Origin: Coriobacteriaceae bacterium | Lineage (GTDB): Bacteria; Bacillota_I; Bacilli_A; RFN20; CAG-826 | Reading direction: 5' to 3' | NCBI GenBank assembly: GCA_963612925.1 | Contig: CAVDXG010000001.1 | Coordinates: forward strand, 3,824-67,823 | DNA length: 64,000 nucleotides | The notes under the pieces: generated by a model | What the model saw: the letters and a program-made list of their open reading frames with translations, nothing else | What the model was told of the DNA's origin: nothing | The model's database searches: none | Shown: positions 4,881 to 6,545 of the stretch, piece after piece | Layout of the letters: every line of letters begins with the position of its first letter | Numbering within the stretch: position 1 is the stretch's first letter | Program-made: the position numbers and the translations under genes

Positions 4881-6209
4881 TTATTCTACGATCTCGCCTG
4901 CTTTTTTAAGGGCGAGTTTTGTGGCGATTGGGCCAATTAATTCATAGATTAAGGTGCTCGTTAAAATGATGGCTAAAATCATTGAGCCATACATGACGAG
5001 TTGTTCTCCTATTTCAGCTTGACCTGAACTAATTAACTCATTGCCTTCTTTTACTAGCGTGCTAGTAGCGGTGTTAGCTAAGCCAATTGCGACGCCCGCC
5101 TGTGGAATTAGGGCGAAACCAAGATATTTTTGAACAGTTTCTTCAGCGTGCGTGGCTTTAGCTGAGACAAAAGAGCCGGTCCATTTGCCGAGAACTCGAG
5201 AAATTAAATATACCAAAGCGATGACAACGATTATTAAAGCGTTTGAACTAGTGAATATCGTTAAATCTAAGGATGCACCTGAAACGATGAAGAAGAGCAT
5301 AAAGATAGGTGGAGTAAACATATCCATTCTTTCAAAGATCATCGTTGCATCATCGCGGAAGTTGATTAAGACTGCGCCAATCATCATCGCCGACAATAAG
5401 CCTGAAATGGAAATATTGACGCCTTCAGGAAGAATATTTGACCACGGCAAAGCAGCTAATCCAGCGCAGATAAAGATGGCGACGATGCACATAATCATTC
5501 GATTGGCTCGGCTTTTGAAGAATTTGCAACCTAGCGTTACTAAAAAGCCTAGAAGCGTTCCTAATACTAGACTTGCTAGAATGGAAACTAATGGATAAAC
5601 GGCTAGAGATAGAAAACTTGGCGAAGTACCTTTAGCCATGGCTTTAGAGATGGAAAATAAGATTTCAAAAGCAATTAAGGCGACCGCATCATCGAAGGCG
5701 ACGACTGGAAGCAATGTATTTACAACTGGTCCTTTAGCTTTGTATTGCTTAACAACCATCAAGGTGGCAGCTGGAGCAGTTGCGCAGGCAATCGCACCTA
5801 AAGTGAGAATAATTTCAACCGGAATATCTTGAATAAATATTTTGGCGATAAATAATCCAGCGATGACAAAGATGGCGCCACCTAAAGCTTCGCAAACAGT
5901 GATGATAACTAATCTTTTTCCTAAAGACTGAAGTGAACTTCTTTTAAAAGAAGTGCCGATGCTAAAAGCGATAAAGCCAAGCGCGGCATTGCTAATAAAA
6001 TCCATTACTTCTGAATCGTAGACAATATCTTTTAAGCTATTACCATTACCCATATCGATATTGGCTAAAGCTAAGCCTAAAACGCATGGTCCGATTAAAA
6101 TGCCAGCGATTAGATAGCCAGTGACATTTGGCATTTTGATGATTTTCATCAATCTTGTGGATAATAGGCCAACTAAAAGAGCGAAAGCTAATATTAATAA
6201 TTGATACAT
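4881..6209 (-). CDS. Cation:proton antiporter (CPA / Na+/H+ exchanger family); no C-terminal RCK domain
   Basis: The N-terminus ...GYLIAGILIGPCVLGL is typical of the Na+/H+ exchanger family. The protein is 442 aa and hydrophobic throughout. An RBS (GAAGGG) precedes the ATG. Confidence 0.75.
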   Translation of the reverse strand: MYQLLILAFALLVGLLSTRLMKIIKMPNVTGYLIAGILIGPCVLGLALANIDMGNGNSLKDIVYDSEVMDFISNAALGFIAFSIGTSFKRSSLQSLGKRLVIITVCEALGGAIFVIAGLFIAKIFIQDIPVEIILTLGAIACATAPAATLMVVKQYKAKGPVVNTLLPVVAFDDAVALIAFEILFSISKAMAKGTSPSFLSLAVYPLVSILASLVLGTLLGFLVTLGCKFFKSRANRMIMCIVAIFICAGLAALPWSNILPEGVNISISGLLSAMMIGAVLINFRDDATMIFERMDMFTPPIFMLFFIVSGASLDLTIFTSSNALIIVVIALVYLISRVLGKWTGSFVSAKATHAEETVQKYLGFALIPQAGVAIGLANTATSTLVKEGNELISSGQAEIGEQLVMYGSMILAIILTSTLIYELIGPIATKLALKKAGEIVE

Positions 6210-6212
6210 TTT

Positions 6213-6545
6213 CTAAAACGACCCTTCGTATTTTTCGACTGGAACGACAAACATGCCTCCGCGGACTTTTTTAAATCCTTGAGTTCCTTCGCGAATAAGT
6301 GAAGTTGCTAAATCGATTTGATTTTCATCTAAAAGAGCGTAGAAAGTGGTGTTTTCTTCGTAACTTATTTTCTCTAAATGGCGCAGAGTCATGAATTGGA
6401 TTTCATTATCTTCTAGGTCGTTTACAAAATGTTTTAAGCTAGTGGAAGCCAAAACTGTTCCATTGATGTGATTATTTGTAAGCGAATGAATGACCTCGTG
6501 GGTGTATTTATTGTTTTCAAAGACAGCGAATAGTAGATGTTTCAT
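6213..6545 (-). CDS. PII-like signal-transduction protein, DarA/PstA (DUF970) type; candidate c-di-AMP receptor
   Basis: 110 aa. Shares an N-terminal MKxhhhAVh pattern, a central ...GTVLASTS... and a C-terminal GGMFVVPVEKY...F with B. subtilis DarA as I recall it. It ends 3 nt before the antiporter ATG. Confidence 0.55.
   Translation of the reverse strand: MKHLLFAVFENNKYTHEVIHSLTNNHINGTVLASTSLKHFVNDLEDNEIQFMTLRHLEKISYEENTTFYALLDENQIDLATSLIREGTQGFKKVRGGMFVVPVEKYEGSF

Follow-up and report, generated by a model that had tools for sequence, protein, structure and literature searches.

A PII-like protein of an unnamed family encoded directly ahead of a cation/proton antiporter: a candidate dedicated regulator

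Gene arrangement

The question raised by the locus described here is whether a small PII-like protein, encoded immediately ahead of a cation/proton antiporter (CPA) gene, serves as the regulator of that antiporter, and to which ligand it might respond. The two genes lie on the minus strand of a 64,000-nucleotide (nt) stretch of contig CAVDXG010000001.1 from a Coriobacteriaceae bacterium (assembly GCA_963612925.1), which is referred to below, at its full length, as the window. The upstream open reading frame (ORF), of 110 amino acids (aa), runs from 6545 to 6213 and ends with a TAG stop codon (6215-6213); an AAA spacer (6212-6210) separates it from the ATG (6209-6207) of a 442-aa antiporter ORF. 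This 3-nt distance, reported in an earlier note made from the sequence alone, was confirmed in both the ORF list and the raw sequence. A Shine-Dalgarno-like GAAGGG (6227-6222) lies 12 nt ahead of the antiporter ATG, within the stretch of the upstream gene that encodes E107-G108, and a scan for promoters and terminators around the pair returned signals no better than chance. The main features of the pair are as follows.

6213 to 6545, minus strand: gene of the PII-like protein, 110 aa, a member of an unnamed subfamily and not of DarA/PstA (ORF list)
4881 to 6209, minus strand: gene of the CPA antiporter, 442 aa, with a predicted NapA-like CPA2 fold and no RCK domain (ORF list, Pfam, AlphaFold2 and Foldseek)
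6354 to 6440, minus strand: region encoding the long T-loop, residues 36-64, S36-L37-x-H39 ... F51-x-(S/T)-L54-R55-H56 (AlphaFold2 model and alignment A1)
6210 to 6227, minus strand: gene junction with the Shine-Dalgarno-like GAAGGG, the TAG stop codon and the 3-nt spacer (read from the sequence)

Our analysis favors a reading in which the 110-aa protein is a PII-superfamily regulator of an unnamed type that is dedicated to the downstream antiporter. We assign this whole chain a probability of about 0.55; the partnership between the two proteins, taken alone, appears more probable than that.

Structural and sequence relationships of the PII-like protein

A homology search yielded 46 homologues of the 110-aa protein. 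Apart from some ORF calls that are longer or cut short, all have 109 to 113 aa; their sources are uncultured Bacilli, Erysipelotrichaceae and Mollicutes-like bacteria living in the gut and rumen. Most of them are unnamed, and two bear the label “YaaQ,” which comes from a single source. The alignment of this family (A1) contains 24 invariant columns. The AlphaFold2 model of the monomer built on it (pLDDT 83; pTM 0.72) has the topology strand-helix-strand-[long loop]-strand-helix-strand, i.e., a double beta-alpha-beta arrangement. Foldseek comparison of this model with the PDB gave 53 matches at E ≤ 1e-3, and each of the 50 listed is a PII, PII-like or PstA protein: the best ones are to PstA (4wk1, E 2.5e-5), DarA and the PstA-like PEPE_1480 (E 2.5e-5 to 2.7e-4), and behind these come GlnK, GlnB and SbtB. 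Because the model and all of the top 50 matches point to the PII superfamily, the protein is assigned a PII-like fold on structural prediction, with PstA and DarA as its nearest solved structures. Sequence searches of the PDB, with the single sequence and with a profile, produced marginal PII and PstA matches (E 0.28-2.4), which are too weak to support any family assignment.

An exhaustive search of 1.84 billion cluster representatives with the A1 profile retrieved 150 clusters at E ≤ 1e-3; no canonical DarA and no GlnB or GlnK was found among them. The distant matches form a second PII-like clade, A2, with the consensus GATIxDSxGM ... FGSLR ... NKTIF ... TGIxFTxPV ... EG, and hhalign relates A1 to A2 with a probability of 99.6 and an E value of 5.5e-24 over 106 columns with almost no gaps and ~26% identity. 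Compared with the Pfam P-II model, A2 members score over their full length 30.2 (P0100), 27.3 (P0129), 24.3 and 22.1 bits, the cut-off being 25. NCBIfam contains no model that covers clade A1 or A2. As judged from these sequence comparisons, the true relatives of the window protein are an unnamed PII-like clade at the edge of Pfam P-II.

The canonical PII proteins GlnB and GlnK were considered as a possible assignment and rejected. The window protein has no match to PF00543 (canonical PII), and the matches of 12 out of 30 relatives are weak (best E 0.0023). The B-loop ATP motif TGxxGDGKI is missing, as is the Gln39/Lys58 pair: the window B-loop reads T88-Q-G-F-K-K-V-R-G-G-M-F-V100, and N65 occupies the position of PII Lys58. 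The loop lengths are those of canonical PII, with residues 35-64 forming the loop between strands 2 and 3 and a B-loop of ~7 residues. An hhalign comparison of the A1 family with Escherichia coli GlnB, using an unverified GlnB query sequence, was not significant.

Genome context

Conservation of the gene pair was evaluated in loci with at least 600 nt of downstream DNA. The PII-like proteins of the A1-type genome loci are 41 to 95% identical, and those of the A3-type metagenome loci are 37 to 65% identical to a distant clade member that served as the query. A CPA gene follows on the same strand in all 18 A1-type loci, at a distance of 2 to 9 nt, and in 68 of the 72 A3-type loci, where the spacing is distributed as follows.

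Stop codon overlapped by 1-8 nt: 32 loci
Spacing of 3-6 nt: 26 loci
Spacing of 15-100 nt: 6 loci
Spacing of ~1.2 kb, the recognized CPA gene being the second gene downstream: 4 loci

Individual look-ups of the family members P0029, P0105, P0100 and P0092 found a Na_H_Exchanger gene next in each case. The flanking genes vary. Thus, yggS, clpB and the gene for a 302-aa membrane protein are neighbors of the pair only in the closest relatives (yggS is found upstream only in L005, L007 and L009-L012), and the neighbors in other loci are glycosidases, TetR, Fic/RelB or DegV. Because of this variation, it is the pair itself that constitutes the conserved unit, down to ~26% identity between the PII-like proteins, and its recurrence against such changing flanks in 18 of 18 and 68 of 72 loci shows that the juxtaposition is not due to chance. 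In total, the pair was seen in roughly a hundred sequences from other bacteria. Conservation of the pair in close and distant relatives alike fits the trans-acting regulator that the earlier note had envisaged.

Gene linkage of this kind could also reflect nothing but co-expression, with the PII-like protein regulating some other target, perhaps an enzyme or a transcription factor, according to ion or energy status and making no contact with the antiporter. Several targets are typical of PII proteins, the target of DarA is still elusive after long efforts, and some relatives of the window protein are encoded by solitary genes or ahead of atpI-atpB-atpE. We nevertheless consider co-expression alone very improbable, given that the pair is retained amid changing neighbors down to the level of divergence that separates A1 from A2 in the hhalign comparison, that stop and start codons overlap in dozens of loci, and that the same pattern characterizes glnK-amtB and sbtB-sbtA, whose products bind each other.

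The solitary genes belong to a sister subgroup (L025-L032; e.g., L025:4001-4333) that is 30 to 35% identical and carries the motif PTEGMHH ... GGMFVLPVSSVEGFF. Its hosts are Candidatus Enteromonas and other organisms known from gut metagenome-assembled genomes, and its genes adjoin a convergent ORF of ~1,100-1,200 aa. One representative of this subgroup, P0063, comes nearest of all to the PF06153 (cyclic-di-AMP receptor) cut-off, with 25.3 versus 27 bits. P0100 and its antiporter (entries L039:22-2198 and L040:685-2230) are encoded immediately downstream of a gene for the beta subunit of an oxaloacetate decarboxylase, an enzyme that pumps Na+. This neighbor fits a role in the sodium cycle, as an anecdotal observation; together with the atp locus, it hints at a link to sodium/proton energetics.

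The antiporter

The 442-aa protein matches the Na_H_Exchanger domain (PF00999) over residues 9-420 with an E value of 7.9e-29 (101 bits), so that too little sequence remains to accommodate an RCK domain, and the 120 closest homologues, of 390 to 455 aa, likewise contain PF00999 as their sole domain. The claim that this antiporter has no RCK domain therefore stands. Its match to the CPA2 model TIGR00932 is weak (35, with a cut-off of 238). In a phmmer search it aligns to NapA of Thermus (5bz2, E 1e-4; two further NapA chains, E 0.004-0.006), with the ion-binding aspartates and the lysine of transmembrane helix 11 (TM11) in register:

5688 to 5693, minus strand: codons of D173-D174, the “DD” ion-binding motif (aligned to NapA D156/D157)
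5184 to 5186, minus strand: codon of K342, the TM11 lysine (aligned to NapA K305)

Among 77 antiporters that are partners of PII-like genes, D174 and K342 are invariant, and position 173 is Asp in 59. The AlphaFold2 model of the antiporter (pLDDT 81) has the helix count and fold of solved CPA exchangers, and Foldseek matches it to SOS1, NHA2, NapA and NhaP at E 1e-11 to 1e-10 with a TM-score of ~0.7. Sequence and model thus suggest an intact, functional-looking antiporter. NapA of Thermus thermophilus (5bz2, 4bwz), the only solved protein reached by sequence search, shares with it the fold, the DD motif and the TM11 lysine, but the two are only ~19% identical, NapA is shorter (386 versus 442 aa), and no PII-like partner is known for NapA.

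The DD or ND motif is characteristic of Na+/H+ exchangers, as opposed to the QD motif of the K+-selective KefC/KEA proteins, and a Lys-Asp salt bridge accompanies electrogenic exchange (PMC11150392). As it retains both the DD motif and the TM11 lysine, the most likely function of the antiporter, as predicted from these residues, is electrogenic exchange of Na+(Li+) for H+, K+ being a less likely substrate.

A variation on this gene arrangement is seen in sediment and mat metagenomes (L093-L121; e.g., L099:3001-5842), where the PII-like gene is followed by two successive CPA-like genes. The first of these has diverged strongly (E 1e-6 to 1e-12 with the CPA profile), and in the second, K-D replaces D-D at the ion-binding motif (18 of the 77 sequences). 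The two products may form a heterodimeric antiporter.

Comparison with DarA/PstA

In the earlier note, the 110-aa protein was taken for a member of the DarA (PstA) family of receptors for cyclic di-AMP (c-di-AMP) because of its length and its N- and C-terminal patterns. The resemblance as such holds up. Both have the ferredoxin-like PII core, DarA/PstA structures are the best structural matches, the lengths are similar, and the window protein has the N-terminal MK and the C-terminal GG-x-F-V-x-P-V ... F, along with counterparts of PstA Thr28, Asn41, Thr43 and Phe99. The markers of the PstA family are a short T'-loop with GGFL in the motif TKLxxxGGFLxxGNTT and a long B'-loop (residues 68-92) located between helix 2 and strand 4; c-di-AMP is contacted by Arg26, Thr28, Phe36/Leu37, Asn41, Gly47, Phe99 and Gln108, and its binding is abolished in the T28A, N41A and GGFL-to-AAAA variants (PMC4316997). 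The window protein retains the Thr (T30), the NTT (N65-T67), the GG pair (G96-G97) and F99. The GGFL is gone: the sequence reads T30-V-L-A-S-T-S36-L-K-H39, continues with an insertion of 22 to 24 residues (24 by the offset in the Pfam alignment, 22 by the hhalign gap) and resumes with N65-T-T67. In addition, Arg26 is replaced by Asn28 and Gln108 by Gly/Ser, and Asp12 and Arg67 are not retained. The long B'-loop is also absent, as the AlphaFold2 model has a helix at 74-88 and a strand at 96-103 with only ~7 residues between them. The near-identical lengths of 110 and 109 aa are therefore a coincidence of two opposite indels, a gain of 22-24 residues in the T-loop and a loss of about 25 in the B'-loop.

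Profile comparisons agree with this picture. The window protein scores 14.5 bits (E 0.041) against PF06153, for which the cut-off is 27, and 13.4 against the NCBIfam DarA equivalog NF058593, for which it is 140. Weak PF06153 matches are seen in 20 of 30 family members (best E 9.4e-5), and hhalign of the A1 family versus PstA gave a weak E value of 0.011, with a PstA query that the primers in PMC4316997 confirm in parts. Because the scores fall below the curated cut-offs, the GGFL is replaced and the B'-loop is missing, the 110-aa protein is not a member of the DarA/PstA family, and the equality in length that had suggested membership is accidental. This also corrects an annotation trap, since the family, sometimes labeled “YaaQ,” could be miscounted among c-di-AMP receptors. 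The loss of family membership removes the basis for c-di-AMP as the ligand; c-di-AMP is a possible effector that the data neither support nor exclude.

These findings bear on the first of the alternatives, a DarA/PstA-type receptor that relays c-di-AMP to an antiporter without RCK_C, acting in trans as RCK_C does in CpaA or as KhtT does for KhtU. The top structural matches to PstA and DarA, the weak but widespread PF06153 matches and the conserved counterparts of the PstA binding residues argue for it, and it draws further support from the c-di-AMP control known for CPA-type K+ exporters in Bacillota and from the precedent of the PII-like SbtB, which binds c-di-AMP even though its T-loop is long. 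The replacement of GGFL, whose substitution by alanines abolishes binding in PstA, with S-L-K-H and the insertion, together with the changes at Arg26 and Gln108, the missing B'-loop and the scores below the cut-offs, speaks against it. So does the failure of the family profile to reach any canonical DarA among the 1.84 billion representatives at E ≤ 1e-3, and the nearest relatives lean to Pfam P-II rather than to PF06153. A scan with Rfam models detected no RNA family in the window, c-di-AMP riboswitches included; nor does the window annotation, which consists of housekeeping genes only, include cdaA or darA, although 64 kb is far too short to judge the presence of a cyclase. On balance, we regard this alternative as unlikely. 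According to a 2023 review, CpaA and KhtT sense c-di-AMP through RCK_C, and the partner of DarA is still to be found; the darA genes are unlinked to an antiporter gene, which is another difference from the pair described here.

Putative ligand-binding site

Residue conservation was scored over 257 non-redundant sequences in three subgroups. Residues conserved in all of them are T30, N65 (Asn or Ser), T67, G97, F99, P102, E107 and G108. In the T-loop, alignment A1 shows no variation at S36, L37, H39 and L54; S36 is confined to the subgroup of the window protein, the others having Gly at that position, and L54 is followed by an Arg at position 55 in 52 of 100 A1-type and 117 of 150 A2-type sequences. 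This segment is modeled with low confidence (pLDDT 53-57).

In PstA, contacts to the adenine and the ribose are made by Thr28 and Asn41, to which T30 and N65 correspond. Because these two positions are invariant, the effector of the PII-like protein is most likely an adenine nucleotide (ATP/ADP/AMP, cyclic AMP or c-di-AMP), as far as can be predicted from the sequence. Because the PII ATP motif and the PstA c-di-AMP motif are both missing, any one of these nucleotides may be the ligand.

The absence of both phosphate-binding motifs is the starting point of a second alternative, in which the protein is a non-nucleotide subunit of the antiporter that senses ions or pH through conserved His and Glu residues or serves in structure or assembly, its PII-like fold being comparable to those of CutA and of the PII-NG proteins that are linked to cation efflux. 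A set of subgroup-specific conserved His, Glu and other polar residues (H3, E10, N11, N28, H39, H56, E104 and E107) argues for such a role, and tight translational coupling would suit an obligate subunit. Yet the adenine and ribose positions T30 and N65 are conserved everywhere, and H3, E10 and H56 are not conserved in A2. Moreover, no CutA-type protein is present in the top 50 structural matches, and there is a solitary sister subgroup. We consider such a role quite unlikely, slightly more so than that of a c-di-AMP relay.

Proposed regulation of the antiporter

In the reading that we prefer, the PII-like protein would act in the cytoplasm as a regulatory subunit dedicated to the antiporter, whose gene lies just downstream. 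The two genes would be co-transcribed, and translation of the antiporter would be linked to termination at the PII-like stop codon, an arrangement that would hold the regulator-to-antiporter stoichiometry constant. By analogy with characterized PII and PII-like proteins, the regulator would be trimeric, with a small effector bound in the intersubunit clefts, and its long T-loop (residues 36-64; S-L-K-H ... F-x-S/T-L-R-H) would contact the cytoplasmic face of the antiporter. More speculatively, the conserved T-loop arginine might enter the negatively charged cytoplasmic funnel toward the DD site, in the way that Arg47 of GlnK enters AmtB. What the analysis shows is the fold of the protein, its family relationships, the conservation and close spacing of the gene pair and the residues of the ion site; that it forms trimers, binds a ligand and touches the antiporter, and in which direction it would regulate, is inferred.

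The closest precedents are glnK-amtB and sbtB-sbtA, in each of which the two products associate by way of the T-loop. In the second of these pairs, SbtA is regulated by the PII-like SbtB, which has a long T-loop and whose intersubunit clefts can be occupied by several adenine nucleotides, c-di-AMP among them. The combination of a small PII-fold protein that has a long T-loop, translational contact between the genes and a transporter with no sensor of its own, as in glnK-amtB and sbtB-sbtA, is the reason for reading the window protein as a dedicated regulator. The likeness extends to the conserved pairing in the same operon and to the lack of a regulatory domain in the partner transporter. There are also differences. 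The window protein has neither the TGxxGDGKI B-loop and Gln39/Lys58 nor the C-terminal CGPxGC loop of SbtB, and ends with EGSF; the regulator gene comes first in the window; and the putative partner is a CPA antiporter, expected to be dimeric, in contrast to the trimeric SbtA and AmtB. A second precedent is provided by KhtT-KhtU, in which a sensorless CPA2 membrane protein (KhtU) is governed by a separate soluble nucleotide-binding protein. In KhtT and CpaA, however, the sensor is RCK_C, a fold different from that of the PII-like protein, and the window antiporter carries DD instead of the K+-type QD.

Several observations weigh against the proposed regulation. The functional claims made for the PII-like protein are derived from gene order and homology and stay provisional to that extent. 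CPA antiporters are homodimers and PII proteins are trimers, and the symmetric plug of GlnK-AmtB or SbtB-SbtA is therefore not simply transferable. The nucleotide motifs of both PII (TGxxGDGKI) and PstA (GGFL) are missing, and so are the basic residues that hold the phosphates (K90, R101 and R103 in PII; R26 in PstA), for which reasons the protein may bind no nucleotide at all. In the solitary sister subgroup, an antiporter gene is found nearby in 0 of 6 loci, and the A2 member P0129 directly precedes atpI-atpB-atpE (L037:283-2045); because of these two cases, the PII-like family is not exclusively tied to CPA genes. Finally, no natural fusion of a PII-like domain with an antiporter was found among the 150 best profile matches.

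Few signal transducers are as widespread as the PII-type proteins. To our knowledge, few classes of their direct targets have been recognized, namely channels for ammonium, transporters of bicarbonate and nitrate, and a small number of enzymes. Judged by sequence, the pair would extend the known theme of a PII-type protein regulating a neighboring transporter. A search of the open-access full-text literature found no paper on a PII-like protein paired with a CPA, CPA2, Kef or Nha antiporter, which is not proof of novelty. A broader generalization, that Bacillota and other anaerobes share a widespread two-gene module in which a distinct PII-like family, lacking both the ATP motif of PII and the c-di-AMP motif of DarA, regulates RCK-less CPA2 Na+/H+ antiporters, some lineages having two paralogous antiporter genes, is put forward tentatively and falls somewhat short of being probable. 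If true, it would make cation/proton antiporters a new target class for PII-type signaling and would show how an RCK-less antiporter can be controlled and how a sensor with three subunits can act on an elevator-type transporter with two, possibly with a new mode of ligand recognition. It would also show how gut and rumen anaerobes tie Na+/H+ homeostasis (pH, sodium cycle) to energy or second-messenger status. With its tight genetic linkage to an antiporter gene, this PII-like family offers a ready and testable regulator-target pair.

Other genes of the window

Upstream of the pair, the window contains the following gene.

6581 to 7219, minus strand: yggS, encoding a pyridoxal phosphate-binding protein, 35 nt from the PII-like gene (TIGR00044, E 1.5e-43)

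The yggS gene may share a transcript with the PII-like gene, but it is outside the conserved module. Between yggS and clpB, positions 7347-8574 of the plus strand are occupied by four small, overlapping or closely spaced genes (101, 158, 80 and 68 aa), the second of which encodes a DUF3990 protein (E 1e-53) and the fourth a DUF3791 protein (E 3e-24). BLAST searches of L005, the 95%-related locus, found no homologues of the 101-aa ORF or of the DUF3990 gene, although yggS and clpB are both present there, and for this reason the cassette looks like an insertion.

The clpB homologue itself (8681-10798, minus strand) encodes a protein of 705 aa that begins at the first AAA module, so that the usual N-terminal domain is apparently missing. 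It is 87 to 98% identical to its counterparts in related loci, which is higher than for every neighboring gene. ORFs with no Pfam match are found on the plus strand at 3961-4869, 11380-12282, 30915-32336 and 42232-43017. The first of these encodes the 302-aa multi-pass membrane protein, which is convergent with the antiporter gene and adjoins the pair only in the close relatives L005, L008 and L010; the others encode proteins of 300, 473 and 261 aa. A stand-alone 666-aa protein that combines an AMP-binding adenylation domain with a phosphopantetheine carrier domain is encoded at 23647-25647 on the minus strand, opposite to the surrounding housekeeping genes (holA, fmt).

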